This document shows positions 43,024 to 60,528 of a DNA stretch of 64,000 nt, piece by piece (position 1 is the first letter of the stretch; each line of letters opens with the position of its first letter). A program made the position numbers and the translations under genes. The notes under the pieces were generated by a model, which searched no databases, was not told the DNA's origin, and worked only from the letters and a program-made list of their open reading frames with translations. Location of the stretch: positions 2,432,001 through 2,496,000 of the forward strand of contig OZ219866.1 in assembly GCA_964291675.2 (NCBI GenBank). Reading direction: 5' to 3'. The DNA comes from Alphaproteobacteria bacterium (GTDB lineage: Bacteria > Pseudomonadota > Alphaproteobacteria > MPNO01).

Positions 43024-43986
43024 CTATTTCGTCATGCCGAGCTCCTTGTAGGCCTTCAACGCGCCGGGGTGGTGCTCGATGCCGGCGTTCTTGAACACCT
43101 CGATCCCCGCGCTCGGGTTCCACGACTTGTAGACCGTCTTCATGTACTTGTCGGTCTTGTCGGTGAAGACGTATTTGACGATGCGATAGATCGTCTCGTC
43201 CGGCACGCTGTCCTGCGCCATGATCGTCGACGGAACGCCGTAGGACTGGGCGTCGGCCACCACGCCGTCGCCGTAATCCGCGGCCTTGATGACATAGGGC
43301 GCGAAGGCCGGGTTCTTGCCGAGCACCGCCTTGAGCTCCGCCGGCGCGAGCGGGATCAGGCGGATCTTGCGGGTCGCCGCCATCGCTGAGACCACCGGAA
43401 CCGGGACGGCGGAGGCCACGGCGAAGGCGTCGATGTTGCCGTCGCGCAGCGCGTTGCCGGCCTCGCTGAAGCCGAGGAACTGGGCCTTGATCTGGTCGCG
43501 CACGCCGACCGTCCGCAGGATCAGGTCGGCATTGGCCGCGGTGCCGCTGCCCGCCTTGGCGAGCGAGACCCGCTTGCCCTTGAGGTCGGCGAAGGACTTG
43601 ATGCCGTCCTTGTCGAGCGTCACCCAGTGGATCGGCGAGATGGTGAGCGCCATCAGCGCGCGGACATTCTTGGCCGGCGGCTTGCCCTTGAATTTTCCGG
43701 TCGAGGTGACGGCGTTGTAGACCGCGCCGAGATTGGCCAGGCCGAGGTTGAGCCCGCCGTCCTCGCGGCTCAGCATCCGCATGTTGGTGGTCGAGCCGGC
43801 GGTGGTCCGGGTCGAGAGCGTGATGCCTTCCAGGTCGCGGGTGATCGCGGTCGACAGCCCGCCGCCCATCAGAAAGTAGCTGCCGCCGGGCGAGCTGGTG
43901 CCGAGGACGAGGCTTTGCGCGGCCGCTCCCTGTGCCAGCGCCAGTACCGCCGCCGAGGCGAGCGTTACCGCAACGAATCTTTTCAT
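43024..43986 (-). CDS. TAXI-family TRAP solute-binding protein
   Basis: Signal peptide, GTSSPGGSYF, TTAGSTTN, LKGKRVS..GSGT, HPGA; GGAG RBS before ATG 43986. Confidence 0.9.
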   Translation of the reverse strand: MKRFVAVTLASAAVLALAQGAAAQSLVLGTSSPGGSYFLMGGGLSTAITRDLEGITLSTRTTAGSTTNMRMLSREDGGLNLGLANLGAVYNAVTSTGKFKGKPPAKNVRALMALTISPIHWVTLDKDGIKSFADLKGKRVSLAKAGSGTAANADLILRTVGVRDQIKAQFLGFSEAGNALRDGNIDAFAVASAVPVPVVSAMAATRKIRLIPLAPAELKAVLGKNPAFAPYVIKAADYGDGVVADAQSYGVPSTIMAQDSVPDETIYRIVKYVFTDKTDKYMKTVYKSWNPSAGIEVFKNAGIEHHPGALKAYKELGMTK

Positions 43987-44034: not shown

Positions 44035-45897
44035 TCAGCGGTCGGGAACAGCTTCGCCCGCCTTGCTCCTGCGGAACTGCCAGGCCGTGAAGACGGCGAA
44101 ACAGGCCGCCGCGATCAACGCGTACACCCCGGAGGTCAGCACCAGGGCGATCCCGACGACGATCGAGACGACCCGGTCGGCAAGCGGCAGACGGGCGTAG
44201 TAGAACCCCTCGATCCCGGCCGAGATCGCCAGCCCGCCCAGCGCCAGCGAGGCGATGGTGATCGCGATGCTCCACACGCTGCCCTGCAGCAGCAGCCCCG
44301 GCTGATAGACGAACAGCACCGGCAGATAAAAGATCGCCATCGCCTTGACCATGGCGACATTGCAGACCGGCCACAATCGCTGCTTGGAGATGCCGGCCGC
44401 CATGTAGGCCGCGAGCGCCACCGGCGGCGTGACGTTCGAGGCCTGACCCCACCACAGCACCAGCAGGTGGGCGGCCATCACCGGGATGCCGAGCTGGATC
44501 AGCGCCGGCGCCGCCAGGGTCGCCAGGATCACATAGGCCGGGATCACCGACAGCCCCATGCCGAGGATGTAGCCGATCACGAAGATGAACATGACCGTGA
44601 AGGCGAGATTGCTCTCGGCGAGGTCGATGATCATGCCGGTAATGCGGATGCCGGTGCCGGGCAGCAGCACCGCGCCGGCGATGATCGAGACCGGGCCGGC
44701 GATGGCGATGATCGGCAGCGAGGCCTTCGCGCCCTCGGCCAGCGCCACGACGATCGCGCGCGGCCCCATCGGCCGCGGGGTCAGCCAGCTTGCCGCGATC
44801 ACGCTGACGATGGCCAGCATGCCGATGCGCCTGAGCGAGTAGTCGAGATAGACCATGACCACGACCACCGCGATCGGCACCAGATAGGCCCAGCCCTGCT
44901 TCAGGGTGGCGGAGAAGGACGGGCAGTCCTCGGCCGGCAGGCCCTTCAACCCGTTGCGCCGAGCGTAGAAATGGACCTGCAGGTAGACGTTGAGGAAATA
45001 GAGCAGCGCCGGAATCGTGGCCGCGAGCACGATCTCCCCGTAGGAGAAGCCGGTCAGCGCCACCATGATGAAGGCCGACGCCCCCATCACCGGCGGCATG
45101 ATCGTGCCGCCGGTCGAGGCCGCGGCCTCGATGCCCCCGGCCACCGCCGGCCGGTAGCCGGTCTTCATCATGATCGGGATGGTGATGCTGCCGGTGATCG
45201 CGACATTGGCCGAGGCCGAGCCCGAGATGCTGGCGGTGATGAAGGACGAGCCGACCGCGGCCTTGGCGCCGCCGCCCGGGCGGGTGCCTAGGAAGGAGAG
45301 GCAGAGGTCGGTGAAGTAGTCCGACGCGCCGGAGCGGATCAGGAAGGTGCCGAACACCAGGAACAGGAACAGGTTGGAGGCGAGCACGTAGGTGATCGAG
45401 CCGTACAGGCCGTCGGTCTGGGCATACAGCGCGGTCGCGATCTGGCGCAGGTCGAACCCGCTATGGACGAACGGCCAGGGGACGAAGGCGCCGAAATAGA
45501 GGAATAGCAGGAATGCGCCCGAGATGATCGCCATCGCCAGGCCGAGCGCGCGCCGCCCGCCCTCGATCACGCCCAAAATCATGATCCAGCCGACCGCCAT
45601 GTCGAAATCGCCGATGTCGAAGCCCTCGTTCTCGGCGAAGTAGAGGTAGCGGTCGTTGAACCGGAAGGTGGCGTAGGTCACCGCGAGCAGGAAGACGACG
45701 TCGAACGCCCGCGCCGGGATGGTCCGGGCCAGCGGATGCACGCAGATCGCCAGCGCCACGCCGGCATAGATGAACAGGCTGCGGTCGAGCGCCGGGCTGA
45801 ACGTGCCCCGGGTCGCGACATAGAGGTAGTAGCAGGTCGTCGCCAGCCCGATCACGAAGCCGAGCTTCTTCCATTCGCCGCAAAACGCTTCGGCCAT
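44035..45897 (-). CDS. TRAP 4TM/12TM fused permease (TAXI type)
   Basis: GGGAKAAV, SGSASANV, EAAASTGG.IMPPVMG, LGMG, TPPVALAAY. Confidence 0.9.
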   Translation of the reverse strand: MAEAFCGEWKKLGFVIGLATTCYYLYVATRGTFSPALDRSLFIYAGVALAICVHPLARTIPARAFDVVFLLAVTYATFRFNDRYLYFAENEGFDIGDFDMAVGWIMILGVIEGGRRALGLAMAIISGAFLLFLYFGAFVPWPFVHSGFDLRQIATALYAQTDGLYGSITYVLASNLFLFLVFGTFLIRSGASDYFTDLCLSFLGTRPGGGAKAAVGSSFITASISGSASANVAITGSITIPIMMKTGYRPAVAGGIEAAASTGGTIMPPVMGASAFIMVALTGFSYGEIVLAATIPALLYFLNVYLQVHFYARRNGLKGLPAEDCPSFSATLKQGWAYLVPIAVVVVMVYLDYSLRRIGMLAIVSVIAASWLTPRPMGPRAIVVALAEGAKASLPIIAIAGPVSIIAGAVLLPGTGIRITGMIIDLAESNLAFTVMFIFVIGYILGMGLSVIPAYVILATLAAPALIQLGIPVMAAHLLVLWWGQASNVTPPVALAAYMAAGISKQRLWPVCNVAMVKAMAIFYLPVLFVYQPGLLLQGSVWSIAITIASLALGGLAISAGIEGFYYARLPLADRVVSIVVGIALVLTSGVYALIAAACFAVFTAWQFRRSKAGEAVPDR

Positions 45898-46002: not shown

Positions 46003-46995
46003 ATGTCCGAAATTCGAGTGCTCAGGGAGGCGGACCTCAAGGCGGTGCTCGATGTCGAGACCGGGCTCGAAATCGTCGAGCGCACGTTCCGCGATCTCGG
46101 CACCAGGGACATCTTCCGCCTGTCCGAGCCCGCCGCGCTGTTGGGCGGCTCCGGGATCGGCACGGCCGCGCGCTACAAGTCCAAGGGCGCGACCCTGATT
46201 TCCGAGAATGTCACCGGGATCCGGCTGATCAGCGACGTGGCGAGGGCGCACGGCTTCCGCTCCCACCACATGCTGGTGGTGTTCGACGACGCGACCGGCG
46301 CGCCGATCGGGCTGTTGAACGAGACCTGGCTGCACCGGTTCCGCACCGCGCTCACCGGCGTGGTCGCGGCCAGGCATCTGGCGCGGCCGGGGTCCCGGGT
46401 GCTCGCGCTGATCGGCGCCGGCTCGATCGCCGCCGAGCTGTTTCCCGCGATCACCCGGGCTTTCGACCTCGACGAGATCCGCGTCGTCGCCCGGCGGCCG
46501 GAGAGCGCCCGGGCCTTCTGCCGCAGGTTTGCCGCCGAGCCCGCCCGGTTCGTCGCCATGCGCGACCCGCAGGACGCGCTCGACGGCGCCGATATCGCGA
46601 TCACCCTGACCTTGGCCCAATCTCCGGTGGTCCGGCCCGGCATGCTGTCGCCGGGCGCCTTCCTGTGCTCGATGGGCGAGACCGAAGAGGTCGCGTTCGG
46701 CGTGCTCGACGAGGCCGATGTGTTCGTCGTGGACGATTTCGAGTATGCGACGGTTCTGGGCGACATCGAGGCGTGGCTGCGCAGCGGCCGCATCGGCCGG
46801 GCCGCGCTGGAGGCCCGGGTGGACGGCCATATCGGCGAGGTCGTCGCCGGGACCAGGCCGTTCCGCCGGAACGACGGCCAGCGCATATTCGCGATCGTCC
46901 AGGGCATGGCGATCTGCGATCTCGCGCTTGCCCGCCACGCGCTGGTTGAGGCGGAGAGACGAGGGCTGGGCGGGAGGCTGGACCTGTTCGGCTGA
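46003..46995 (+). CDS. Ornithine cyclodeaminase / mu-crystallin family protein
   Basis: FDDATG.P, RTA, LARPGSRVLALIGAG, IGEVVAG, GMAICDL; start MSEIRVL at 46003. Confidence 0.85.
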   Translation: MSEIRVLREADLKAVLDVETGLEIVERTFRDLGTRDIFRLSEPAALLGGSGIGTAARYKSKGATLISENVTGIRLISDVARAHGFRSHHMLVVFDDATGAPIGLLNETWLHRFRTALTGVVAARHLARPGSRVLALIGAGSIAAELFPAITRAFDLDEIRVVARRPESARAFCRRFAAEPARFVAMRDPQDALDGADIAITLTLAQSPVVRPGMLSPGAFLCSMGETEEVAFGVLDEADVFVVDDFEYATVLGDIEAWLRSGRIGRAALEARVDGHIGEVVAGTRPFRRNDGQRIFAIVQGMAICDLALARHALVEAERRGLGGRLDLFG

Positions 46996-47022: not shown

Positions 47023-47454
47023 TCAGGACGGGGTCCGCGCGTACTCGGCCAGCGTTATCACCGCGTCGCCATGTCCGGTCGGCGCCAGCGCGTTTGCGAA
47101 GCGGAGGTCCGCCGTCACCACCGCGGCGCCGATGCGGTGCGCCAGCGCGAGATAGATGCAGTCGTAGACAGGCCGGTCGAGTGCCAGCGCGAGACGAAGC
47201 GCATCGGCCGCCACCGTTTCATCGGCGTTCCAGCGGACCGGCATCTCCCGCACCGACTCCATCATGGCGCCGGCATCCCTGCGTTCGATCTCGCCCAGCC
47301 GAGCCTTGCGCCACACGGCATTGGCGATCTCGCAAGCCATCAGGCGCGGCGCGTGGAGATCGTCGTCGCCCGATGCGAGCGTGCGCGCCATGTCCGAACC
47401 CTGTTCGGCAACCAGCCACTTGACCGCCACGCTGGCGTCGACGACCAGGCGCAT
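47023..47454 (-). CDS. vapC: PIN-domain toxin (VapC/FitB-like)
   Basis: VVDASVAVKW, EIANA, YDCIYLALA and VTAD carry the acidic PIN residues. Confidence 0.9.
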   Translation of the reverse strand: MRLVVDASVAVKWLVAEQGSDMARTLASGDDDLHAPRLMACEIANAVWRKARLGEIERRDAGAMMESVREMPVRWNADETVAADALRLALALDRPVYDCIYLALAHRIGAAVVTADLRFANALAPTGHGDAVITLAEYARTPS

Positions 47455-47711
47455 CAGAAATCGCGGTGGCCGCGGTCGCGGTCTTCGCGGATCAGCACCT
47501 CCGCCGGCGTATGCGCCCGCCCTTCGGTCGCGCGCCGCAGCCGGTCCGACAGGGCCAGGAAGGACGCGCGCCTGGCCGCCATGTCGTCCGCGACCGCGTT
47601 CTCGAGAATGTGGCGCACCTCGCCTTCCAGAGACCGGTTGTTCGCCGCCGCGCGCCGCTTTAGTCGCTGAACCACGCGCTCGTCGAGCCGCCGCACGTTG
47701 ATCGTCGCCAT
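47454..47711 (-). CDS. Ribbon-helix-helix antitoxin (FitA-like)
   Basis: MATINVRRLDERVVQRLKRRAAANNRSLEGEVRHILE; its stop overlaps the toxin ATG. Confidence 0.88.
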   Translation of the reverse strand: MATINVRRLDERVVQRLKRRAAANNRSLEGEVRHILENAVADDMAARRASFLALSDRLRRATEGRAHTPAEVLIREDRDRGHRDF

Positions 47712-47773: not shown

Positions 47774-48520
47774 TCAGTGCCGGACAAGCAGGCGCCCGTA
47801 GCCTTCCACCGCGATCGCCGATCCCATCGCCCGCAGGCAGCGCCAGAGCGTCGCCTGGTTGCTGGTCACCACGGGCTTGCCGAGCTCGTCCTCGAGGCGT
47901 TCGATCAGGTCGAGCGACGGCAGGTTGGTGCAGCTTATGAACACCGCATCGGCGTCCGGCCGGTCGACCCGGCGCGCCAGTTCCCGGGTGGTCTCCAGGG
48001 GAACCCGGCCGATGCCGGCGCGCTCGGACGCGGTCCTGCCGAGCCCGAGACCTTCGACGGAGACGACGTCGAGGCCGTGCTCGGTGAGCCATTCGGTCTC
48101 GCGCCGGTTGACGAAATCGGTCCTGGGCGTGGCGAGCGCGATGTGCCGCGCGCCGAGCGCGCGGAGGGCGGCGACGACCGCATCCGAGGTCAGCACCGCC
48201 GGCGCGCCCGTCATCCGCGTCATCGCCTCGGTCAGAACCTCGCCGGGGAAGAAATAGGTGCACGACGTGCAGCCGAAGGCGATCACGTCGACACCCGCCG
48301 AGCCCAGATCGCGAGCTGCCCCTTCGACGTTCTCGGCGATCTGCCGGTAGAGCGCCGGCGCCTGCGGCCCGTCCTGGAAGGCGCGCGCGACGTGGACCGC
48401 GAGACCCGCCGGGGCCATTCGATGGAATTCCGGCTCGATGCTGGTGTTGGTCGAGGGGCAGACCAGCCCGATCCTGCCGAGCCCGGCATAGGGGCCGGCG
48501 GCGGGAAGGCTATCGGCCAT
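47774..48520 (-). CDS. Maleate cis-trans isomerase / Asp-Glu racemase family protein
   Basis: IGLVCPSTN, both catalytic Cys (FGCTS, ISCTNL), KPVVTSNQA. Start at 48520 overlaps the upstream stop. Confidence 0.88.
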   Translation of the reverse strand: MADSLPAAGPYAGLGRIGLVCPSTNTSIEPEFHRMAPAGLAVHVARAFQDGPQAPALYRQIAENVEGAARDLGSAGVDVIAFGCTSCTYFFPGEVLTEAMTRMTGAPAVLTSDAVVAALRALGARHIALATPRTDFVNRRETEWLTEHGLDVVSVEGLGLGRTASERAGIGRVPLETTRELARRVDRPDADAVFISCTNLPSLDLIERLEDELGKPVVTSNQATLWRCLRAMGSAIAVEGYGRLLVRH

Positions 48521-49598
48521 CCGCGCCGCCCGCATCGGCGATGCACGCGCACAACCCGCCGCCGGGCGGCGCCTGGTGCTCGGTCCCGCCGCTGACGAAG
48601 ACCCGCCCGGTGCCGAGGATGCCGCCGATCACCCCGCTGGCGGTCGCCCGCATGTGCTTGTCGGGGTCGAGGTCGCTGTGGAAGACGGTCGTGCGTTCGC
48701 CGCGCACCCGCCCGTCCGGCGCGACGCCGGTCTTCACGAACACCGCCCGCAGCCTTTCCGGCGCGGCGATCTCGCCCGACTCGTCGAGGCCGCAGCCGGC
48801 CCTTCGGAACAGGGTCTTCAGCGAACGCGCGTCGAGAATGTCGGCCATCGGTCCGGAGAACACCTTGGTCGACCCGCCGGCGCCCGGCCGGTTGCCCAGG
48901 ACCAGAACCTCGCCAACCTCGACCTCCGTGCCGGAAAAGCTCATCGTCCGCCTCGAATGGCGTTGCAGGTCGGCGCCGATCCGCGTGTCCCCGATCTCCG
49001 CCTCGGTCAATTCGCCCAGCGCCAGCGCGACGCCGAGCGCGGCCGCGCCCCGGGATTGCCCGCTCGACCCGGCCCGGGCGACGACCGCCGGATCGCCGGT
49101 CGCCGCGGCGTCGCGGTGGCTGAGGATCGGGCTCTTGACCAGGACCAGGGCGACCCGATCCGGGGCGAGCCCGGCTTCGGCCATCGCGTCCTCCACCGCG
49201 CCGGCGATCAGGCGGGCATGGGTCGGCGTGACCAGCTCGCCCGCCGTCATCGCCCGGGTCCGCCCGCCGCCGATGACCAGGCGCTCCTCGTCGCCGCCGC
49301 CGCCGTCGGCGATCGCCGCCAGCACGTAGACCACCGGGCTCAGCACGCCCTCGGAGCCGGTCGAGAAAATGAGCGTGGACGCGCCGAGCAACTCCGCGCC
49401 GCCGATTCGTTCGATCGTCGCCTCGGCGGCCGACAGCGCGAGCTCGCGCGAGAAATCGTTGATCGTCGCGGTGCCTTCGGTCTTGGCGACCAGCGCCAGG
49501 CGCGCGATGTCGCCTGTCGGCAGCCCGGAAAGAATGCGTTCGAGCCCCGCCACGTCGCCGGGGCCGTCGGTCGCGTAAGAATCGACATGGACTCGCAT
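48510..49598 (-). CDS. Ring-opening cyclic amide hydrolase (AtzD/barbiturase family), divergent
   Basis: KTEG..NDFSR, S.GSEGVLSP, VKSP, SRGAAALG, DGRVRGER, VFVSGGTEHQAPPGGG. Confidence 0.88.
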   Translation of the reverse strand: MRVHVDSYATDGPGDVAGLERILSGLPTGDIARLALVAKTEGTATINDFSRELALSAAEATIERIGGAELLGASTLIFSTGSEGVLSPVVYVLAAIADGGGGDEERLVIGGGRTRAMTAGELVTPTHARLIAGAVEDAMAEAGLAPDRVALVLVKSPILSHRDAAATGDPAVVARAGSSGQSRGAAALGVALALGELTEAEIGDTRIGADLQRHSRRTMSFSGTEVEVGEVLVLGNRPGAGGSTKVFSGPMADILDARSLKTLFRRAGCGLDESGEIAAPERLRAVFVKTGVAPDGRVRGERTTVFHSDLDPDKHMRATASGVIGGILGTGRVFVSGGTEHQAPPGGGLCACIADAGGADGR

Positions 49599-49613: not shown

Positions 49614-50984
49614 CTACGCGGCGAGAAACGAGTCGACGAACCATCGGCCCCGGAGCGCCAGGGCGTAATCCTCGTGCGGGTGGCCGAGGAGCTGTATCCC
49701 CATCGGCAGGCCGCGGTCGGCCAGCAAGGGCAGGTTCCAGGCCGGCGCGCCGAGACATGAGGAGACGTCGCCATAGACCGGATCTCCGACCGGCATGCCG
49801 ACCGGCGGAGGGCCCTTGGCGGAGAGAGTCAGGTAGCCGTCGAACGCGCCGTCGAGCGCCGCGAACGTCCGCCGCAGCGCCTCGCGCATGGCGAGGCGGT
49901 CGCGGTAATCCTCGGGTGAAAGCGCCTCGCCCCGGGCGAGGCGTTCGAGAACCGCTTCGCTGAGCAGGTCGCCCTCCATGTCGCGGTATCCCCGGGTCGG
50001 CCAGCGCATCTCGTAGGCGAAGATGTCGAACATGAAACCGGGGATGGTGAGCAGGGCATTCTCCAGGGCGTCGAGGCGTTCGTCGTCCCCGCGCGAGACG
50101 ATTTCGACGCCGCTGCCGGCGACATCGGTCAGGAACCGCTCGAAGGCCTCCCTGGTCTCGTCCTCGGTGTCGGGCCAGGCGCGGGTCTCCAGCCGTGCAA
50201 GCCGGCGCGGCTTGACTGCCCGCTCCAGCTCGGGCCGACCGTAAAGGCCGGGGTGGCCCGGGTCGCCGCCGACGGTCTGCGAGATATGGAACGCCGTCCG
50301 CCAGCAATCCTCGAGCGAGCCGGCATGGACGCCGAGCACGCTCTGGCTCGGCGACATCGAGTGCCCGCCGCCGCGGTTGAGCGCACCGAACGTCGGCTTC
50401 AGCGCGTAGTTGCCGCAATAGCCGGCGGGCCGCTGGATCGAGCCCCTGACCTGGCTTCCGCTGCCTGCCGGCACCATGCCCGCGCCGACCGCCGCCGCGG
50501 TTCCGCTCGAAGAACCGCCGGGCGTGCGGGTCGGATCGAAGGGGTTGCGGGTCGGTCCGGGCGTGGCTTGGCCGAACTCCGTGGTCACGGTCTTGCCGAC
50601 GATGCCGGCCCCGCCGATGCGCAGCGCGTGGACATGGGCGGCGTCGCGGATCGACTGCCATCCCGCGTAGACCGGGCTGTTCATCTGGGTCGGCATGTCG
50701 ACGGTTTCATAAAGGTCCTTGATGCAGACCGGCATGCCGTCGACCGCCGACAGCGGACGGTTCTCCCGGTAGCGTGCCGAGGACCGATCCGCCGCTTGCC
50801 GCGCGCCCTCGACATCGGTGACGACGAACGCCTTCACCTCGGGCTCGCGGGCCTCGATCGTCTCCAGGCAGCGTTCGAGATAGGCCCGCGGCGTGTCGCC
50901 GCCGTCGAGAAACGCCGGGATGCAGTCGTGGAAGCCGCGCAGCTCCGGGTTGCGGGGGTCGTAGGGCCGGCGGGCGCCGCTCAT
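49614..50984 (-). CDS. Amidase-signature family amidase
   Basis: IKDLYET, GKTVTTEF, RTPGGSSSG, GSIQRPAGYCG (Ser-cisSer-Lys triad). Confidence 0.92.
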   Translation of the reverse strand: MSGARRPYDPRNPELRGFHDCIPAFLDGGDTPRAYLERCLETIEAREPEVKAFVVTDVEGARQAADRSSARYRENRPLSAVDGMPVCIKDLYETVDMPTQMNSPVYAGWQSIRDAAHVHALRIGGAGIVGKTVTTEFGQATPGPTRNPFDPTRTPGGSSSGTAAAVGAGMVPAGSGSQVRGSIQRPAGYCGNYALKPTFGALNRGGGHSMSPSQSVLGVHAGSLEDCWRTAFHISQTVGGDPGHPGLYGRPELERAVKPRRLARLETRAWPDTEDETREAFERFLTDVAGSGVEIVSRGDDERLDALENALLTIPGFMFDIFAYEMRWPTRGYRDMEGDLLSEAVLERLARGEALSPEDYRDRLAMREALRRTFAALDGAFDGYLTLSAKGPPPVGMPVGDPVYGDVSSCLGAPAWNLPLLADRGLPMGIQLLGHPHEDYALALRGRWFVDSFLAA

Positions 50985-51012: not shown

Positions 51013-51891
51013 TCAGAGGCTCTGCGCGTAGTCGAGGATCAGCCGGTTGAAGGCTTCGGGATGCTCGCGGTAGCTGAAATGCCCCGAATGGTTGAACACG
51101 TGCATCTCGGTCCGGGGCTCCTTGTGCACCATGATCTCGTAGAGCCCGAAACCCTGGTCGATGGTCGCCGTCGGGTCGTTGAGCCCCCAGACGATCAGGT
51201 TGGGGCGCTCGGTGCCGGCGCTCATCAGCCGGTCGAAGGTGTCGCTCTTCTGGCGGGCGAGCTGCGGCACGAACACCCGGTCGAGCAGCCCTTCGTCGAG
51301 CATCTTGCGGACCGACTCCAGGTATTTCGGCAAGGCGGCCACCCGCATCAGCTCGTCGAGCCAGTCCTCGGTGACGATCTTCGGGTTCCACGAATAGTTC
51401 TCCAGCACCCAGCGCTGGCTCTCGCGGCTGAGATAGGGCTTGGGCGTGTCGGTGAAGACGATGTGGTTGCGGCCCTGGCCGGGGCCGAGCGTGTTGGTGT
51501 CGACCATGATGTTCGACTTGATGCGGGCGGGGTTCTCCAGCGTCATGCGGCAGGTGAGATAGGCGCCGCGCGAGTGGCCGACGATGTGGCAGTCGTGGAG
51601 ATCGAGCGCGTCGAGAAAGCCGAGCGCATGGCGCACCACCCGCGCCATGGTGTAGTCGTCGTCGGTCTCGGGGTTGCCGGTGTAGCCCTGTCCGATCTTG
51701 TCGACCGCGATCACCCGGCATTCCCCGGCCAGGGAGTCGAAATTGAGGTTCCAGTCGGCCGCGCAGTCGGCCCCGTGATGGGAGCCGAAATTGCCGCCGT
51801 GGAACAGCACGATCGTCTCGCCGGTCCCCTTGTCGAAATAGCGCGTGTCGATCCCGTCGACATCGATGAATTTCGCCTGCGAAAAGTCCAT
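51013..51891 (-). CDS. Alpha/beta hydrolase, paralog H1
   Basis: FHGGNFG, DKIGQG, GHSRGA, WGLNDP, GHFSYREHPE; GGAGG RBS. Confidence 0.9.
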   Translation of the reverse strand: MDFSQAKFIDVDGIDTRYFDKGTGETIVLFHGGNFGSHHGADCAADWNLNFDSLAGECRVIAVDKIGQGYTGNPETDDDYTMARVVRHALGFLDALDLHDCHIVGHSRGAYLTCRMTLENPARIKSNIMVDTNTLGPGQGRNHIVFTDTPKPYLSRESQRWVLENYSWNPKIVTEDWLDELMRVAALPKYLESVRKMLDEGLLDRVFVPQLARQKSDTFDRLMSAGTERPNLIVWGLNDPTATIDQGFGLYEIMVHKEPRTEMHVFNHSGHFSYREHPEAFNRLILDYAQSL

Positions 51892-51920
51892 TTCCGCCTC
51901 CCTCGTCTCCGTGCGGCCGT

Positions 51921-52799
51921 TCAGGGCGCGTGAATGAAGGTTCGGACCACCTCGTTGAACCGTTCGGGGTGCTCGCGGAAGCTGTAATGGCCCGACCGGT
52001 TGAAGATCTGCCAGCGCGCCCGGCGCTCCCTCTCGGCGAGGATGCGGTAGAGGCCCATCGCCTGTTCGCGCGACACCGTGGGGTCGTCGCTGCCCCAGAT
52101 CTGGAGGACCGGGCGCTGGATGCCGCGGGTGCCGAGGATGCGGAACATCTCCTCCTTCTGGGTGAGGATGCCGGGCAGGAATTTGGTCCACTGGAAGCCG
52201 TCCCCGGACATCTTGCGCACCGCCTCGGCGTATTTGGGCTGCCGCGCGATTTCCACCATGGCGTCGATCCACGCATCCGATATGTGGTCGTGGCCGTAGG
52301 AGTATTTCTCCACCACCCAGCGCTGGCTCGCGGCGCTCAGCGCGGGCCCGGGCATGTTGGCGAACACGAGCTCGTTGCGCCCGATTCCCGGCGCGCAGGT
52401 GTTGCTGTCGACGATGGTGCAGCTCTTGACCAGCTCCGGGTGCTCGACCGTGAGGCGGCAGACCAGATAGCCGCCGCGCGAATGGCCGACCAGATGCGCC
52501 CCCTCGATCCCCAGCGCCCGCAGCGTCGCATATGCGTGCTGCACCGCCGCATGCATGGTGTAGTCGTCATCCGTCCGGGGATTGCCGGTGTAGCCCTGTC
52601 CCAGCTTGTCGATGGCGAAGACGCGGAACCATTTGGCGAGGCCGTCGAAATTGAGGTCCCAGTCGTCGGCCGAGCAGGCGCCCGTGGTCGAGCCGAAGGC
52701 GCCGCCATGCACCAGCACCAAGGTCTCGCCCGAGCCCCGCTCGAAATAGCGGGTACGCACCCCCTCCACGTCGACGAATCTTGCGTCCGGTATCGGCAT
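51921..52799 (-). CDS. Alpha/beta hydrolase, paralog H2
   Basis: VHGGAFG, DKLGQG, GHSRGG, WGSDDP, GHYSFREHPE. Confidence 0.9.
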   Translation of the reverse strand: MPIPDARFVDVEGVRTRYFERGSGETLVLVHGGAFGSTTGACSADDWDLNFDGLAKWFRVFAIDKLGQGYTGNPRTDDDYTMHAAVQHAYATLRALGIEGAHLVGHSRGGYLVCRLTVEHPELVKSCTIVDSNTCAPGIGRNELVFANMPGPALSAASQRWVVEKYSYGHDHISDAWIDAMVEIARQPKYAEAVRKMSGDGFQWTKFLPGILTQKEEMFRILGTRGIQRPVLQIWGSDDPTVSREQAMGLYRILAERERRARWQIFNRSGHYSFREHPERFNEVVRTFIHAP

Positions 52800-52824
52800 T
52801 CGTGTCTCCCGCGTCCGCGATGTT

Positions 52825-53748
52825 TCAAGTCACCCCTGACGACGCCCGCTTGAGACGGGGGTCGAGTATGTCGCGCAGCCCGTCGCCCAGCAGGTTGATG
52901 CCGAGCACCGTCATGAAGATGCAGAGCCCGGGAAACAGCGCCAGCCACCACGACGTCGAGATGTGCTCGCGCCCGTCGGCGAGCATGCTGCCCCAGGTGG
53001 GGATTTCCGGCGGCACCCCGAGCCCCAGGAAGCTGAGGCTGGCTTCCGAGATGATCGCCGATGCCATGGCGAAGGTGCCGATGACGATCGCCGCCTGCAG
53101 CAGGTTGGGCAGGATGTGGCGGCCGACGATCCGCCCGTGCGAGGCGCCGAGCGACCGCGCGGCGGTGACGAAATCCCGCGCCCTCAGCGACAGCGTCTGC
53201 CCGCGCGCGACGCGGCAATAGGGGATCCAGCGCTGCGCCACCAGCGCGATGATCAGGATGCCGAGCCCCTGCCCCATGAAGGCGAGGATGGCGATCGCCA
53301 GCAGCAGCGGCGGGAACGCCCAGACGACCTCCACGGTCTTCTGGATGGCGAAATCGGTGCGCCCGCCGAAATAGCCCGAGATCGCCCCGAACCCGACGCC
53401 GACGATGCCGGAGACCAGCACCACCGTGGAGGCGATCACCAGCGAGATCCGCGCGCCGTAGATGATCCTGCTCAGAATGTCGCGCCCGACATGGTCGGTG
53501 CCGAGAAAGAACCTGCCGGCGAAGTAGTCGGGCGCCTGAAGCGCGGCCAGCAGGTCCTGCTGGTTGGGGTCGTAGGGGGTGATCACCGGGGCCAGCACGC
53601 CCACCGTTATCAGCAGCGCGACGACCGCCCCGCCGAGGCAGATCTTGACCTTCATCCAGCGCCGCGAGCGCCTTTTCAGCTCGGCCAGCCACTGGACCAG
53701 CGGCGCGGCGCGGCTAGTCGAAACGGATTCTTGGATCGATCGCGCCAT
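52825..53748 (-). CDS. Peptide/nickel ABC transporter permease (DppC-like)
   Basis: LGTDHVGRD, FVTAARSLGAS, HILPN, EASLSFLGLG. Confidence 0.92.
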   Translation of the reverse strand: MARSIQESVSTSRAAPLVQWLAELKRRSRRWMKVKICLGGAVVALLITVGVLAPVITPYDPNQQDLLAALQAPDYFAGRFFLGTDHVGRDILSRIIYGARISLVIASTVVLVSGIVGVGFGAISGYFGGRTDFAIQKTVEVVWAFPPLLLAIAILAFMGQGLGILIIALVAQRWIPYCRVARGQTLSLRARDFVTAARSLGASHGRIVGRHILPNLLQAAIVIGTFAMASAIISEASLSFLGLGVPPEIPTWGSMLADGREHISTSWWLALFPGLCIFMTVLGINLLGDGLRDILDPRLKRASSGVT

Positions 53749-54718
53749 AGCTGATATCGATGAGGAAGTTGACGGTGACGAACAGCACGGTGTAGGCGAG
53801 CACCACGCCCGTGATCAGCGGGTAGTCGCGGGTGCCGAGGCCGTTGATCAGCAGATTGCCGATCCCCGGCCAGGCGAACACGGTCTCGACGATGATCGAG
53901 CCCGAGAGCAGCGTGCCGAGCTCGAGACCGACGACGGTGATGATCGTGATCAGGGCGTTGCGGACGATGTGGCGCCACAGCACGACCCGGCCGCTCAGCC
54001 CCTTGGCGCGGGCGGTGGTCACGAACTCCTCATGCGTCACGTCGAGGATCGCCGAGCGCGTGACGCGCATCAGGATGCCGAGCATGTTCACGCCGAGCGT
54101 AGCCGCCGGCATGACGATGTAGGAAAGCGCGTCGAAGAACCCTTTCCAGTTCCCCTGGATCAGGCTGTCGACGGTGTAGAAGCCGGTGATCGTCGGTCCG
54201 GCGATGCCGTAGGTCTCGCGCCCGGCCGACGGCAGCAGGTTGAAATACCCCGAGACGATGAGGATCAGCATGATCCCCATCCAGAAGCTCGGCATGCTGA
54301 TGCCGAAGAAGCCGAACACCGAGCCGAAATTGTCGACCCAGGAGTTGGGTCTGGCTCCGGCCCACACGCCCAGCGGAACGCCGATCAGGACCGCCAGCAG
54401 GGTGGCGAAGAAGGTGAGCTCAAGCGTCGCCGGAAAGCGCTGCGCGAGCAACGTGGTGACCGACTCCTTGTAGCGGAACGACTCGCCGAAATCGCCCTGC
54501 ACGGCGGAGCCGAGGAAGACCAGGTATTGCTCGTGGAACGGCTTGTCGAGCCCCCACCGCGCCCGCGCCTCGGCGATATCCTCGTGCGTCGCCTCCTCGG
54601 GCAGCAGGATATCGGCCGGATCGCCGGGCGCGAGCTGCAGCAGGCCGAACACCAGCAGGGTGATCAACAGAAGGACGGGTATCGTCCCGACCACCCGCTT
54701 GAGGGTGTAGGTCAGCAA
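53714..54718 (-). CDS. Peptide/nickel ABC transporter permease (DppB-like)
   Basis: PGDPA, GDFGES, FPATLEL, TARAKGL, ETVFAWPG; TTG start. Confidence 0.92.
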   Translation of the reverse strand: MLTYTLKRVVGTIPVLLLITLLVFGLLQLAPGDPADILLPEEATHEDIAEARARWGLDKPFHEQYLVFLGSAVQGDFGESFRYKESVTTLLAQRFPATLELTFFATLLAVLIGVPLGVWAGARPNSWVDNFGSVFGFFGISMPSFWMGIMLILIVSGYFNLLPSAGRETYGIAGPTITGFYTVDSLIQGNWKGFFDALSYIVMPAATLGVNMLGILMRVTRSAILDVTHEEFVTTARAKGLSGRVVLWRHIVRNALITIITVVGLELGTLLSGSIIVETVFAWPGIGNLLINGLGTRDYPLITGVVLAYTVLFVTVNFLIDISYGAIDPRIRFD

Positions 54719-54781
54719 ACGAAACCCGCCTTTCCGTCAGACCGGCAAGGCGCGATGCCGCCGCGCGGCGGGCGGCGCCGG

Positions 54782-56314
54782 CTAGTTCTTCATCGTCGCT
54801 TCGCTCATATAGGGACGACCGTCCGGCCGCGGCTGGTAGTCGACGTTGTTCGCCACGCCGTATTGCAGCGTGTGCGTCCACATGAAGCAGGCCGGCGCCT
54901 CCTCGGTCAGCACCGACATCGCCTCACGCAGCGTCGCGATGCGCTTCTGCTCGTCGAAGGCGGCCCGTTCGGCCTGCATCAGCTTGTCGTACTCGGCGCT
55001 GGAGAACTTGATGCGCGGCGACACCCCGGTCTCGAAATACTGCGACAGCGCCGGGCCGGGGTCGATCACCGAGCCGCGGCCCTGATAGAAGAACGGCACC
55101 TTGCCCTTGCGCACATTGGCCCACTGCGTGACCCATTCGGGGGTGTGCAGCTTGGTCCTGATCCCGACCGCGCCCAGCATCGGCACCATGGCCTGGGTGA
55201 TCTGCTTGTCGTTCACGTAGCGCGCGACGGGCGTGTACAGGTCGACATCGACCCCGTCGGCGTATCCCGCCTCGGCGAGCAGCTTCTTCGCCTTCTCCGG
55301 GTTGTAGTCGTAGACCGGCTTGTGGTCGGGGTTGTAGGCGTACTGGCCCGGCCCGATCGGACCCTGCAGAAGCTGCGCCTGCCCCTTGAGCAGCGCCTTC
55401 ACGATGCCCTCGCGGTTGATCGCGTGGCAGACCGCCTGGCGCACCTTCTGGTTGTCCCACGGCTTCATCGCCGGGTTCATGGCGAGGAACATGATCTCGA
55501 CCGAGCTGGTGGGAACCAGCCTGGCGTTCTTCGACTTCTCGATGCGGCTCAGGAGATGCGGCGGGATGAACTGCGCGATCTGGATCTCGCCGTTGAGCAG
55601 CGCGGTGACCCGCTGTTCCGACTCGGTCATCTTGCGCACGATCACGATGTCCGGCGAGCCCGGCCTGAGGAACGGGTTCCCTTCGGCCTTCTCCAGCACC
55701 ATGCGGTTGCCGATGACGAACTCCTTGAGCCTGTAGGGTCCGGCGCCGTAGGGGTGGTTCTTGTCGGCTTCCTTGGCGCCGTACTTGTCGTAGGCGTCCT
55801 TGCTGGAGATCGCCCACAGGCCGCAGATATAGCTCAGCAGCGACGATGTCGGCTTGTGGGAGATCATCCTGACGGTGTAGTCGTCGACCGCCTCGACGGA
55901 CTTGATCTTCCGCGCCGAGTTCTGCTTCTGGCTGCTCTCGGGATCCTTGCTCATGCGGAAGAAGGAGTGGACGACGTCCTTCGCCGTCAGCTCGGTCCCG
56001 TTGTGGAACTTCATCCCCTTCTTGAGATGGAAGATCCAGGTGTTCTCGTCCTTGACCTCCCATTTCTCGGCGAGATGGCCGACATAGCCGCCCTTCTCGA
56101 AGCTGTAGCGGCAGAGATTGCCGTAGATCTCGCCCCACAGACCGTAGAGATGCGACGCGCTGTCGCCATAGGGGTTGACCGTGCTGAGATTGGAGGTGAT
56201 GCCGAGCGTGAGCCGGGTCTCCGCCGACGCGGTCGCGCCGACCGTGACCCCGGCCGCCAGAACGGCGCACGCCGCCATTCTCGACGCCACTCGCGCGGAA
56301 GCTGAAACTCGCAT
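54782..56314 (-). CDS. Peptide/nickel ABC transporter substrate-binding protein (family 5)
   Basis: Signal peptide, FHNGTELTAKDV, GAGPY, KVRQAV..AIN, YNPEKAKKLLAEAG. Confidence 0.92.
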   Translation of the reverse strand: MRVSASARVASRMAACAVLAAGVTVGATASAETRLTLGITSNLSTVNPYGDSASHLYGLWGEIYGNLCRYSFEKGGYVGHLAEKWEVKDENTWIFHLKKGMKFHNGTELTAKDVVHSFFRMSKDPESSQKQNSARKIKSVEAVDDYTVRMISHKPTSSLLSYICGLWAISSKDAYDKYGAKEADKNHPYGAGPYRLKEFVIGNRMVLEKAEGNPFLRPGSPDIVIVRKMTESEQRVTALLNGEIQIAQFIPPHLLSRIEKSKNARLVPTSSVEIMFLAMNPAMKPWDNQKVRQAVCHAINREGIVKALLKGQAQLLQGPIGPGQYAYNPDHKPVYDYNPEKAKKLLAEAGYADGVDVDLYTPVARYVNDKQITQAMVPMLGAVGIRTKLHTPEWVTQWANVRKGKVPFFYQGRGSVIDPGPALSQYFETGVSPRIKFSSAEYDKLMQAERAAFDEQKRIATLREAMSVLTEEAPACFMWTHTLQYGVANNVDYQPRPDGRPYMSEATMKN

Positions 56315-56395
56315 TACCGTTCTCCCCTTCGGATGTTCGTCCCCAGCGGCATCCCCGCCGCATGGCCGCAGTCTACAGACATCGCCGCCGCCGGC

Positions 56396-57697
56396 TCAAT
56401 AATAGCCCGCCGCGATCGCCTGGCAGACCAGCTCGACGGCGGGCGGGACCAGCCCCAACGGCAGCCCCTCCTCGGCCCGCCAGTAGGAGTGGATGCCGGT
56501 GCCGAACTCGACGATCCGCACCTCGGGCGCGGGCTCGATCTTCTCCAGCATGGGCAGCATGACGCCGTAATACTTCTCCGGCGTGTGGTCGCGGCTGAAC
56601 CGGGCGATCATGTAGAGCAGCGGCGGCACCGGCTTCGCGCCCTTGCCCTCCAGCGGCCGCCCCATGCCGATATAGCGCTGCACCAGGTCCCGCGTTCCCG
56701 TCTCCGACAGGCCGAGGCGGGCCGCGGTCACGGTCGCGGCTTCGGTGAGCGCCGGGATCGAGTGGATGTGGAAGAAATTCTCCGCCTTGATCTGCGGGAA
56801 GCGCTTGACCTCCTCCCACGTCTCGAAGACTTCCTCCATCACCCAGGGCAGCCGCATCAGGGGCTCGCCGCCCTCCTGCATGTAGAGCTCCGCGCCCCGG
56901 TAGCGGGCGAGCTCGCGCCAGTCGCGGACCAGCAGGTCGTTGAACGGGTTGGGCCAGTCGTGCCCGGCCATCGCGTGGAAGATGCAGGCGAAGGTGGAGT
57001 TCTCGATCCCGGCGAGCCCGACGACGTTCTCGACGCGCTGCAAAATCATGTGCGAGAACGGCCCGCCGGTAGAATGGCCGTGGGTGTAGACGGCGAACTC
57101 GTCGACCGGGAAATGCCGCCGGCACAGATCCTTCATCGCCGCCTCGAAAGCGAGCGGCCAGGCCGCCATCCGCGCATGGAACACGGTCCCCGGGCGGGCG
57201 CGGGCGAAGGTCCGGGTGCCGTAGACGTGGCGCAGGGACGCCTCGCGCACGATGTCGTACTGCTCGCGGCCGATCGCCTCGCCGCGCTTCCAGATCGGCG
57301 TGCGCAGCCCGCCATCGGCGAGCCTGGTGTCGCCCGGCCAGTCGCGCGACGGGTCGGGAAAGTAGAGCCGGCCCGGGAAGGTCATGTTGACCACCTTGAA
57401 GCCGCGCTTCCGCGCGAGGGTCAGCGCGTAGGGCTCGATCGAGCGCCAGTCGCTCGCCCCGCCATGGGTCATCAGCATGCCGGAACGCCGCCCGTCGGCG
57501 GAGACATGGGCTCTGGCGCGGTCCACCGGCTCGTAGACCATCGCGCCGATGTCCCATTCCATGCCGGCGACGTCGAGGCGGAACACGTCCTCGTACCGCC
57601 CGATCTCGATGTCGGGCTCGGCCAGCACGCGGTCCGAGATCTCGACCAGCTCGTCGCGCGCGTAGCGCCTCGGCGGCTGCCACGATCCGTCGGGCAT
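56396..57697 (-). CDS. Uncharacterised protein X1 with a probable alpha/beta-hydrolase nucleophile elbow
   Basis: Start MPDGSWQPP at 57697, 17 bp after the H3 stop. THGG, GHSTGGP, DH, late GIH; paralog of 61580..62869. Confidence 0.75.
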   Translation of the reverse strand: MPDGSWQPPRRYARDELVEISDRVLAEPDIEIGRYEDVFRLDVAGMEWDIGAMVYEPVDRARAHVSADGRRSGMLMTHGGASDWRSIEPYALTLARKRGFKVVNMTFPGRLYFPDPSRDWPGDTRLADGGLRTPIWKRGEAIGREQYDIVREASLRHVYGTRTFARARPGTVFHARMAAWPLAFEAAMKDLCRRHFPVDEFAVYTHGHSTGGPFSHMILQRVENVVGLAGIENSTFACIFHAMAGHDWPNPFNDLLVRDWRELARYRGAELYMQEGGEPLMRLPWVMEEVFETWEEVKRFPQIKAENFFHIHSIPALTEAATVTAARLGLSETGTRDLVQRYIGMGRPLEGKGAKPVPPLLYMIARFSRDHTPEKYYGVMLPMLEKIEPAPEVRIVEFGTGIHSYWRAEEGLPLGLVPPAVELVCQAIAAGYY

Positions 57698-57714
57698 GGT
57701 TCCGGTCCCCGCGC

Positions 57715-58590
57715 CTAGAGCGCTTGGATGAAGCCGCGCAGCATCTCGTTGAAGATCTCCGGCTGCTCGCGGAACGAATGGTGCCCCGCGCGGTTGATGA
57801 TCTGGAGCTGGCAGCGCGGCTCGGTGGCGGCGATCAGGTCGAACAGCGCATAGCCCTGCTCCAGCGGCGCCGTCGGGTCGTTGCGGCCCCAGACGATCTG
57901 CGTCGGTCTGCCCATGCCGCGGTCGCGGATCCAGGCGAACATCACCGACTTGTCCTTCGCCAGGCCGGGCAGGAACATCCTGGTCTTGAGACCCTCGTCC
58001 TCCATCTTGCGGACGGATTCCTGGAACTTGGGCAGGTTCGCCACCTCGACTGCGGCATCGAGGAACGCGTCGTCGATGTGGTGCGGGCTGTAGGAGTAGT
58101 GCTCGTAGACCCATTTCTGGCACTCGCGGCCGAGCCGGGGTCGGGGCGCGCCGGCATGCACGACGTCGTTGAGCCCGCGCCCGGGCGCGCAGGTGTTGCT
58201 GTCGATAATGGTGCAGGACGCCACTAGCCCGGGCTGCTCCAGCGTCAGCCGGCAGACCAGGTAGCCGCCGCGCGAATGGCCCGCGAGATGCACGTCCGAG
58301 AGCCCCAGCGCGCGGATGAAGCCGTTGGCGTGCTGCACCACCGCGTTCATCGTGTAGTCGTCGCCCGGCGGGTTGTCGGTATGTCCCTGGCCGAGCTTGT
58401 CGAACGCGACGACATGGAAGTCGCGGGCCAGCGAATCGAAGTTCCGGTCCCAGACGACGGCGCTCGACGCCGCCTCGTCGGAGCCGAAATTGCCGCCGAA
58501 GACGAGCACCAGGGGCGGCCCGGAGCCGGCTTCGAAATAGCGCGTGCGGATTCCGTCGACATCGATCCACTTGGCATCGGTCATCGGCAT
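57715..58590 (-). CDS. Alpha/beta hydrolase, paralog H3
   Basis: VFGGNFG, DKLGQG, GHSRGG, WGRNDP, GHHSFREQPE. Confidence 0.9.
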   Translation of the reverse strand: MPMTDAKWIDVDGIRTRYFEAGSGPPLVLVFGGNFGSDEAASSAVVWDRNFDSLARDFHVVAFDKLGQGHTDNPPGDDYTMNAVVQHANGFIRALGLSDVHLAGHSRGGYLVCRLTLEQPGLVASCTIIDSNTCAPGRGLNDVVHAGAPRPRLGRECQKWVYEHYSYSPHHIDDAFLDAAVEVANLPKFQESVRKMEDEGLKTRMFLPGLAKDKSVMFAWIRDRGMGRPTQIVWGRNDPTAPLEQGYALFDLIAATEPRCQLQIINRAGHHSFREQPEIFNEMLRGFIQAL

Positions 58591-58631
58591 GATCGCGTCT
58601 CCCTGGACCAGGAAATAACCGCCCGAGATCG

Positions 58632-59510
58632 TCAGTTCAGGCTGGAGATGAAGCCGCGGACGATCCCGTTGAACCGTTCGGGGTGCTCGCGGAACGGGAA
58701 ATGCCCGGCCCGGTTGACGATGTGGAAATAGGCCTGGCGTTCGCCGGCGGCGATCGTCTCGTAGAGCGGAATGCCCTGGCGCAGCGGCGCGGTGGGGTCG
58801 TTGTAGCCCCACACCAGCTGGGTCGGCCGCTTCATCTTCCGGTCCTGGATCCAGCGCAGGGTCTCGGCCTTCTGGCGCGCCAGCTCGGGCAGGAAGAGGC
58901 CCGCCTTGAGGCCCTCGTCCTCCATCTTGCGGATCGCCTCCTGCGTCGTGGGAAGGCGGCCGACCTCGACCACGGCATCGAGCCAGGCTTCGGTGATGTG
59001 GTCGGGGGAGTAGGAATATTTCTCGTAGGTCCAGCGCTGGCACTCGCGGCTGAGCGGCTCGTATGGCGGCTGGGCGTGGACGATCTCGTTGAGCCCGACG
59101 CCGGGGCCGAGCGTGCCCGAGTCCACGATGGTGCAGGACCGGACGAGCTCCGGGAATTCGAGCGTCAGCCGGCAGACCAGGTAGCCGCCCCGCGAATGCC
59201 CCACCAGATGGACGTTGGAGAGTCCGATAGCGTCGATGAAGGCAGCGGCGTGATGGACGACCGCGTTCATCGTGTAGTCGTCGTCGATCGGGTTGCCGGT
59301 ATGGCCCTGTCCCAGCTTGTCCGGCGCTACCACATGATAGTCCGCCGCCAGCCCGTCGAAGTTGCGGTCCCAGGCGATGGCGCAGTTCGACCCGTCCCTG
59401 GAGCCGAAATTGCCGCCATAGAAGAGCACCACGGTCTCGCCCTCGCCGGCCTCGAAATAGCGCGTGTCGACATCGCCGACGCTGGTCCATTTGGGATCGT
59501 TCATCGGCAT
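58632..59510 (-). CDS. Alpha/beta hydrolase, paralog H4
   Basis: [35 protein letters not shown]. Confidence 0.9.
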
Positions 59511-59512
59511 CT

Positions 59513-60499
<987 letters not shown>

Positions 60500-60528
60500 C
60501 TCTGCGGCTTCCCCCGAACCCCGGCCGG

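Follow-up and report, generated by a model that had tools for sequence, protein, structure and literature searches.

Can a Toblerone-fold enzyme do without the serine of its second domain and, if so, on what ring does it act? The question is raised by one gene in a 64,000-nt stretch of DNA from an Alphaproteobacteria bacterium (contig OZ219866.1, positions 2,432,001-2,496,000 of the forward strand; hereafter the window). The gene encodes a protein of the AtzD/barbiturase family (hereafter the query; Table 1) in which a phenylalanine occupies the position of the domain-2 serine. An initial annotation, made from the sequence without database searches, had taken it for a family member with a remodelled active site and a non-triazine substrate, possibly a two-carbonyl cyclic imide. 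Our results show that the query is a real and conserved new variant of a known family, belonging to a clade that shares its Phe-Ser-Gly motif, and that genes of this clade are nearly always linked to a gene of the ornithine cyclodeaminase (OCD)/mu-crystallin family. The genomic lead is strong; the substrate that we favour, an orotate-like ring, is proposed with less confidence.

By fold and by profile the query belongs to the Toblerone family, and by its active site it is a variant of it. It scores 246.7 bits with the Pfam profile PF09663 (cut-off 25) and 185.7 with TIGR02714 (cut-off 153.1), which places it in the family on both counts. With NF052395, the NCBIfam equivalog of AtzD, it reaches 246.9 against a cut-off of 360, the AtzD control scoring 535.6. 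Because this cut-off is also exceeded by a sequence with the barbiturase signature (L078, 437.2) and by a group IV sequence (L079, 372.3), NF052395 alone cannot identify cyanuric acid hydrolases. An AlphaFold2 model of the query, built from a 96-row alignment (predicted local distance difference test score 94.6), aligned with AtzD (4bvq_A) over 350 residues with Z 49.2 and a root-mean-square deviation (rmsd) of 1.8 Å. Template-modelling scores to Toblerone structures were 0.85-0.90, so that the model has the three-repeat Toblerone fold, as the annotation had expected. Seven PDB sequences match the query, every one a Toblerone enzyme, the weakest match being 5hy0 (E 1e-28). ESM Atlas searches gave family names only. 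A search through 8000 candidates turned up no longer or fused Toblerone form (658-2000 aa), a negative of little weight. The 130 plasmid records matched by the query all stayed below 40% identity, and the nine that were checked contained no Phe type.

To examine the active site, the query was aligned with the AtzD gene of pADP-1 (L077) in a 134-row family alignment and, using HMMER, with five PDB chains. AtzD residues are given here in native numbering, in which S232 corresponds to Ser233 of Peat 2013 and the metal ligand E297 to Glu298. The eight motifs quoted in the annotation are all present in the translation (KTEGTATINDFSR at 39, FSTGSEG at 78, VKSP at 154, SRGA at 182, TMSFSGTE at 218, VKTG at 288, HMR at 315 and VSGGTEHQ at 335). 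Phe221 falls on AtzD S232, where the alignment is free of gaps. Furthermore, T80 replaces G84, TATI replaces NGCV, G291 replaces the metal ligand E297 and D313 replaces T320. The residues retained are the three lysines K39, K155 and K289, the three arginines R51, R183 and R317, and S79, S336, E83, E225 and E340, the equivalents of AtzD Ser83, Ser343, Glu87, Glu236 and Glu347. Domain 2 has therefore lost its serine and kept its lysine, K155, and with two of the three AtzD serines left, the query lacks both the domain-2 Ser/Lys dyad and the full complement of three Ser-Lys-Arg sets. The phenylalanine at the second-repeat serine, STG in place of SGG, the altered GNG loop and the Glu to Gly change at the metal site had all been read correctly from the sequence, and the remodelled site of broken three-fold symmetry deduced from them is supported.

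We then compared the best 120 of 308 matches to the query (P0001) with the best 120 of 7972 matches to AtzD. Position 221 was F in 120/120 of the former and S in 120/120 of the latter; position 291 was G in 117 and E in 119, respectively, and position 80 was T in 110 and G in 120. Among 96 aligned clade members, K39, R51, S79, E83, K155, E225, K289 and R317 were invariant in all 96, and S336 nearly so. Such invariance is what one expects of an enzyme under selection. Since the whole clade shares the changes and the other catalytic residues do not vary, a sequencing artefact or a pseudogene is ruled out. A shift of register that would bring the serine of the FSG motif (S222, also invariant) onto the catalytic position was rejected on the strength of the alignment. 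Indeed, S222 aligns with an alanine of AtzD (Ala233/234), and the same position is a serine in 4 of the 120 AtzD neighbours. According to parts of PMC4051656, the active cyanuric acid hydrolase of A. caulinodans carries a serine there (Ser227) next to its catalytic Ser226. A shift is therefore unlikely, since active enzymes can have serine at this position in addition to the catalytic one. The refutation named in the annotation, this serine on the catalytic position and clustering with ordinary family members, fails on both points.

The substrate-binding subsites behaved differently from one another. In the query's 120 relatives, subsites A (R317, E83) and B (R51, E225) were invariant, while subsite C, which parts of PMC6557486 equate with the Arg193-Glu351 pair, covaried: 66 had R183/E340, as does the query itself, and 49 had K183/V340. 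From the constancy of A and B and the variation of C we infer that the clade enzyme binds two carbonyls and, in the third position, some other group. The two-carbonyl half of the imide proposal thus gains some support.

The loss of the domain-2 serine bears on a dispute about the nucleophile of these enzymes. Ser85/Lys42 was proposed as the nucleophile pair of AtzD, Ser233 being conserved in all 68 homologues then known (PMC3758960, in part). The opposing view holds to the domain-2 serine (Ser233, 226 or 231 according to the enzyme). Excerpts of PMC4051656 report its Ser/Lys dyad as absolutely conserved in 119 sequences, and this conservation was used as an argument. Passages of PMC6557486 favour the same serine on attack geometry and locate it over carbonyl subsites B and C, with the remaining two serines at subsite A. 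A natural and widespread clade without this serine makes the question directly testable: if its members hydrolyse anything, another serine can act.

How does the query relate to the characterised groups? It resembles AtzD/TrzD (EC 3.5.2.15; PDB 4bvq, 5t13, 4nq3, 6bum; groups I-III of Peat 2013) in fold (Z 48-49, rmsd 1.7-2.0 Å), at 31-35% identity. It also has, in R183 and R317, the arginines at AtzD 194 and 324 by which cyanuric acid hydrolases are recognised (the two-arginine test of PMC9118981). The C-terminal motif of the same source, S-G-G-X-E-X-Q-G-P-X-G-G-G-P, is not found: the query has A where the motif has the G that follows Q, and L in place of its final P; its own version ends in QAPPGGGL. 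Of the signature R195/T321/R325/G345/G346 plus Glu298 (PMC3758960, excerpted), the query has four residues, D313 standing for T321 and G291 for E298. Judged by its serines, C-terminal motif, Thr321 position, metal-ligand position, equivalog score and place in the tree, the query is not a cyanuric acid hydrolase. Like barbiturase (EC 3.5.2.1; PDB 5hwe; group VI; Z 47), it shows a broken three-fold symmetry, and its clade shares a context of pyrimidine catabolism. Barbiturase, however, keeps all three serines and has N/H/K/V/S at positions 195/321/325/345/346 (346 being S or A), where the query has R/D/R/G/G. The control with the barbiturase signature (L078) is placed elsewhere in the tree. The orphan groups V (Frankia 5hy0) and IV (Acidithiobacillus) share the fold (Z 40-43) and likewise have no established substrate, but they keep the domain-2 serine; the query has neither the R/M-T/R/T/R motif of group IV nor the missing Arg195 of group V, and representatives of both (L079 for group IV and P0312, which is group V-like) keep Ser and fall outside the Phe branch. 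By these residues the query is neither a barbiturase nor a group IV or V protein. The annotation was thus right that this is no normal cyanuric acid hydrolase or barbiturase. Many clade members are nevertheless named 'cyanuric acid amidohydrolase' by JGI, and since the query also passes the two-arginine test, surveys probably over-count triazine-degrading potential.

The phylogeny agrees with the residues. A profile search of 50%-identity representatives gave 1352 proteins at E up to 0.001, of which 150 were listed. The tree was built in quick mode from 123 rows, 11 fragmentary or frameshifted ones having been dropped from 134; it is unrooted, supported by the Shimodaira-Hasegawa-like approximate likelihood ratio test (SH-aLRT) only, and several of its rows have odd composition. 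One branch (SH-aLRT 98) separates 35 Phe-type from 69 Ser-type rows, 19 rows belonging to neither group, and the core that contains the query has a support of 100. AtzD lies outside the Phe branch, as do the controls named above. Forcing the query and AtzD into one clade costs 334 log-likelihood units and is rejected (approximately unbiased test, p-AU 8.3e-18). With midpoint rooting, the Phe clade has as its neighbour the group V-like branch, whose best PDB match is 5hy0, though with weak support (77). Further Toblerone branches, independent of the Phe clade, have Thr, Val or Ala in place of AtzD Ser233 (P0259, P0277, P0280, P0283, P0295, P0311, P0313, P0332, P0343 and others). Judging from the alignment, then, the Phe clade is not the sole exception, and with these branches it shows that the domain-2 serine is no longer absolutely conserved in the family. 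A literature search found no description of the Phe clade, of a link between AtzD-type and OCD genes, or of orotate or oxonate catabolism with such genes, although earlier notice in subscription papers or supplements is possible. The Phe-Ser-Gly clade is a widespread part of the cyanuric-acid-hydrolase family and is apparently undescribed.

We next analysed gene neighbourhoods. The sample comprised 75 GTDB loci, from the best 80 of 90 confirmed stretches, to which the locus of the characterised Rhizobium enzyme (L076) was added. Loci without the domain-2 serine (L001-L069) are hereafter the clade loci; L070-L075 are canonical, which with L076 gives a canonical set of seven. The F-A-G and F-T-F-S-G sub-branches lie outside this sample, and gene presence was scored by tblastn. 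The clade loci span Alpha-, Beta- and Gammaproteobacteria and Actinomycetota, and their 78 Toblerone copies have F (75), V (2) or Y (1) at the serine position. An OCD gene was present in 67/69 clade loci, in 45/45 of those of at least 15 kb, and in 0/7 canonical loci; the two loci without it, L051 and L053, are contigs of 4 kb in which the Toblerone gene lies at the edge. The linkage is near-obligate, and the initial annotation had missed it. The OCD gene often lies 0-30 bp downstream of the Toblerone gene, and in the query subclade it is convergent and comes after a racemase gene. For 54 full-length Toblerone/OCD pairs, pairwise identities in the two families correlated with r 0.92, a value that 0/2000 permutations reached. 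The subclades of the two trees largely match, and the two paralogous pairs of one locus (L017) sort separately in both. A prediction of a Toblerone-OCD complex from paired 43-row alignments scored 0.00; its controls did not fold, so it is evidence for neither side. Nine of the 69 loci (L016, L017, L021, L022, L023, L024, L037, L042 and L065) hold two Phe-clade paralogues, usually one of K183/V340 and one of R183/E340 type where the motifs could be read, and some of them have a second OCD gene.

The OCD partner in the window, whose start was chosen by scoring of open reading frames (ORFs; the longest begins at 45736), has every hallmark of the OCD/mu-crystallin family: PF02423, the fold, the invariant residues K61, R74 and R114, and a Rossmann motif, GAGSIA, followed by VARR. 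The residue after the second Rossmann strand is Arg, not Asp, which would point to NADPH as the cofactor and to reduction as the direction; a carboxylate is presumably bound by the invariant Lys and Arg. Its 16 NCBIfam matches all score below cut-off, and it is 16-26% identical to all solved members.

Genes of orotate metabolism recur in the clade loci, another context that the annotation had missed. Pyrimidine-linked genes (pyrE, pyrD, pyrK, a degenerate phosphoribosyltransferase (PRT)-like gene or uracil phosphoribosyltransferase) are found in 23/69 of them. A pyrE paralogue occurs in 17, class 1B pyrD in 12 and pyrK in 11 (E 1e-8), the last two forming full ORF clusters in 10 and 9. In addition, a class 2 dihydroorotate dehydrogenase gene adjoins the Toblerone gene in L057, and L012 has URC4 and uracil phosphoribosyltransferase genes. 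The PRT genes, present in 18 of 54 tree rows with 10 state changes, are 31-41% identical (minimum, median) and usually adjoin a gene of the M20 carbamoylase family, itself present in 25/69 loci. In Falsiroseomonas-type loci the M20, pyrE and Toblerone genes abut. The pyrE-type and M20 genes turn up repeatedly, in differing gene orders, across Alphaproteobacteria, Betaproteobacteria and Actinomycetota (degenerate PRT-like in the last). Annotation covered the representatives of neighbour clusters and 119/146 further near neighbours.

We propose that the query forms a two-gene catabolic module with the OCD enzyme and is a ring-opening amidohydrolase in which Ser79, with Lys39, would attack an orotate-like dioxo-carboxylate ring, coupled to imine reduction; to this we give a probability of roughly 0.45. 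OCD-family enzymes act on alpha-imino acids, that is, on C=N beside a carboxylate, iminosuccinate included (PMC8446579, in part). An orotate-like ring is proposed because it has two carbonyls and a carboxylate-bearing carbon able to form such an imino acid, and because it links to PyrD, PyrE and an N-carbamoylase. Orotate or dihydroorotate as the actual substrate is possible though doubtful, and 5-azaorotate (oxonate) or its dihydro form distinctly unlikely. The latter is a triazine and still a candidate, so the claim of a non-triazine substrate is not established. More broadly, we tentatively suggest that orotate, dihydroorotate or 5-azaorotate may be processed by an undescribed pathway centred on the Phe-Ser-Gly clade and its imine reductase, with Ser79/Lys39 as nucleophile instead of the one assigned in cyanuric acid hydrolases and the OCD enzyme reducing either the ring or a labile ring-opened imino acid, the two paralogous pairs of single genomes handling two related rings; this wider scheme may well prove wrong. 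Only two substrates are established for the Toblerone fold, and the genomes of this clade offer a strong lead to a further reaction, the third, as well as to a new reductase of the OCD family.

In the proposed pathway the carboxylate would be imported by a TAXI, TctC or ABC transporter, and its two ring carbonyls bound by R317 and R51 in subsites A and B, with the less polar ring edge that bears the carboxylate held by Phe221 and the remodelled subsite C. Lys39 would activate Ser79 (or else Lys289 would activate Ser336) for attack on the carbonyl in subsite A, which would open the ring. The OCD enzyme, probably with NADPH, would reduce the C=N next to the carboxylate. Acting on the intact ring it would give the dihydro ring; acting once the ring is open it would trap a labile imino acid, for instance iminosuccinamate or N-carbamoyl-iminosuccinate. 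A two-cysteine racemase could then equilibrate the new alpha-carbon, in the query subclade only, and an amidase or M20 N-carbamoylase would free the amino acid, NH3 and CO2. The extra PyrD, PyrK and PyrE may channel material into pyrimidine salvage, or may serve as protection from an analogue of orotate.

Partial precedents exist. In hydroxyectoine catabolism (eutABCD; PMC13188858, in part), EutA and EutC form a pair of Asp/Glu-racemase-family and OCD-family proteins beside a ring-opening hydrolase, as here, and BhcD is an OCD-family iminosuccinate reductase. The scores are nevertheless far below the cut-offs for EutA (145.8 of 318), EutC (112.3 of 471.65) and BhcD (72.3 of 500), the hydrolase here is a Toblerone protein, and no EutB or EutD was seen among the annotated neighbour clusters. 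With the classical reductive orotate pathway the clade loci share class 1B PyrD/PyrK together with an N-carbamoylase-family gene in about 10 loci. That pathway consists of orotate reductase, dihydroorotase and ureidosuccinase, the ring being opened by the metal-dependent dihydroorotase, and we know of no Toblerone or OCD enzyme in it. The PDB title of 5hy0, the group V relative, reads 'orotic acid hydrolase', which is a hint only.

Several observations weigh against the orotate proposal. The study of Peat et al. in 2017 reportedly failed to find a substrate of the 5hy0 protein. The usual direction of class 2 PyrD is towards orotate, and a separate orotate reductase would be redundant where PyrD/PyrK are present. 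Pyrimidine-linked genes occur in only 23/69 clade loci, 20/45 long loci and 2/17 loci of the query subclade, and pyrE, pyrD and M20 genes are all missing from the locus in the window. The OCD model is equally near several subfamilies (Z 34-40), none of OCD, AlaDH, SbnB, EutC, BhcD or Pyr2C/Pip2C reductase being singled out, and its preference for NADPH is presumed from a sequence motif. The correlation between the Toblerone and OCD families falls to r 0.38 among the 1125 pairs below 60% identity, many loci are near-duplicates, and L022 is discordant (possibly mispaired), so that co-inheritance is indicated and not interaction. Finally, changing each serine of the A. caulinodans enzyme to alanine costs about 10^8 to 10^9-fold, Ser226 most. 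Mutagenesis and geometry thus both favour the serine that the clade has lost, and a two-serine hydrolase is not guaranteed to work.

The same logic of hydrolase and imine reductase could serve another N-heterocyclic carboxylate with no close relation to orotate, such as a cyclic N-carboxyalkyl compound or a product of purine or pterin oxidation; the pyr genes would then be a side module of some lineages. This would account for an OCD link that is near-universal where pyrimidine-linked genes are found in a third of the loci, for an Atz/Trz-type deaminase in 16/69 loci and for the paired paralogues, which suggest more than one substrate; natural substrates of related enzymes are said in parts of PMC7948467 to arise from uric acid oxidation. 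We nonetheless think it unlikely, since pyrE-type and M20 genes that recur across phyla in varied gene orders are hard to explain without a relation to orotate.

The lost serine, favoured as nucleophile by mutagenesis, geometry and conservation, also allows that the protein is not a hydrolase at all. It might bind or sense a ring compound, or perform a lysine-based chemistry for its OCD partner (tautomerisation, or the handling of imines and enamines as in YjgF/RidA ancestors). K155 and E225 are indeed kept without their serine, and the YjgF-like repeats match Rid and chorismatase structures at Z 8-10. On the other hand, S79 is invariant and S336 nearly so, together with their lysines, the presence of amidases and carbamoylases implies that the product is an opened amide or ureide, and the loci have no other ring-opening hydrolase in common, all of which makes a non-hydrolytic protein quite unlikely.

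A simple imide such as maleimide or succinimide, feeding an amidase and a maleate isomerase, is the part of the initial proposal that gained no support, and we regard it as improbable. The isomerase-family gene does overlap the query gene, as had been noted; in 15/17 loci of the query subclade it follows or overlaps the Toblerone gene, both cysteines are kept in the window, and an amidase lies upstream. Across the clade, however, it is found in only 20/69 loci and is absent from 49, against 6/7 canonical loci with it. Its product keeps the catalytic cysteines C89 and C202, which are shared with racemases and hence not diagnostic of maleate isomerase. It stays below every NCBIfam equivalog cut-off, including that of the arylmalonate decarboxylase (AMDase) model (124.6 of 225). 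Its PDB matches are AMDase (E 3e-24), 2xec (E 6e-20) and 4fq7 (E 5e-14), so that it scores higher with AMDase than with solved maleate isomerases. On these scores the product looks like a generic two-cysteine racemase/isomerase that accompanies the query subclade only. An imide, moreover, would leave without a role the imine reductase found in 67/69 loci, and the window's type of amidase is common to only 4 loci.

An ordinary cyanuric acid hydrolase or barbiturase in which Ser222 has taken over is very improbable: the two arginines, the invariance of S222 and the JGI names are outweighed by the gap-free alignment, a serine already present at that position in active enzymes with the catalytic one, the missing C-terminal motif, Thr321 and Glu298, the equivalog score, the rejected grouping with AtzD and the absent barbiturase signature.

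Table 1. Features of the window around the query gene, with the evidence for each
Feature	Position	Strand	Evidence and remarks
Toblerone-fold (AtzD/barbiturase family) protein, Phe-Ser-Gly clade (query)	48510..49598	-	362 aa; PF09663, alignment, AF2 (AlphaFold2) model
Phe221 codon of the query	48936..48938	-	position of AtzD Ser233, A. caulinodans Ser226 and M. thermoacetica Ser231; sequence and alignments
Ornithine cyclodeaminase/mu-crystallin family oxidoreductase	46003..46995	+	PF02423; fold Z 34-40 to all OCD-family structures
Asp/Glu-racemase/arylmalonate decarboxylase/maleate isomerase superfamily protein	47774..48535	-	PF17645, PF01177; overlaps Toblerone stop
Amidase-signature enzyme	49614..50984	-	PF01425; 15 bp upstream of Toblerone start
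TAXI-type TRAP transporter, fused permease	44035..45897	-	PF06808; 24/69 loci
TAXI-type TRAP solute-binding protein	43024..43986	-	PF16868, PDB TAXI matches; 23/69 loci
PIN-domain gene and small antitoxin-like gene	47023..47711	-	PF01850; inserted between racemase and OCD genes (convergent junction), not in module
Upstream block, lineage-specific	51013..61491	-	four BphD/HsaD-like alpha/beta hydrolases, peptide/nickel-type ABC transporter, Pfam-less 433-aa ORF

The remaining neighbours vary more from locus to locus. An amidase of one of several unrelated types is present in 44/69 clade loci, and a TctC gene in 36/69. For the binding proteins of the TAXI and TctC types, as for the M20 enzyme and the deaminase, PDB matches pointed to the family but to no decisive ligand. 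The upstream hydrolase/ABC block, whose four paralogous hydrolases are 50-64% identical to one another, occurs only with L001, L004, L005 and L007; with 4/69 loci it was ruled out as a core of the module and is probably accessory. Beside these hydrolases, two ORFs of about 430 aa (56396-57697 on the minus strand and 61580-62869 on the plus strand) have no Pfam or NCBIfam match and each carry a G-x-S-T-G motif, which we take to suggest alpha/beta hydrolases. An insertion similar to that of the PIN-domain pair was seen, among 76 loci, only in L002, where an antitoxin gene and a PIN remnant occupy the same place (11917-12245).

The canonical-serine Toblerone genes of L070-L075 (Actinomycetota) stand amid genes for uricase, a PuuE-like deacetylase, malate synthase, a racemase and urease, a context of purine catabolism. 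Further along the window, a TRAP transporter (39840-42851, minus strand) looks broken: its DctM matches intact DctM only in three pieces and two frames, with an internal deletion and a frameshift, and a MarR-like fragment (42510-42845, plus strand) lies opposite the start of the DctP ORF. Judged by their translated starts, the genes at positions 27850-38291 (plus strand) probably form a nitrate reductase-like operon, two of them being nitrate/nitrite transporter-like.

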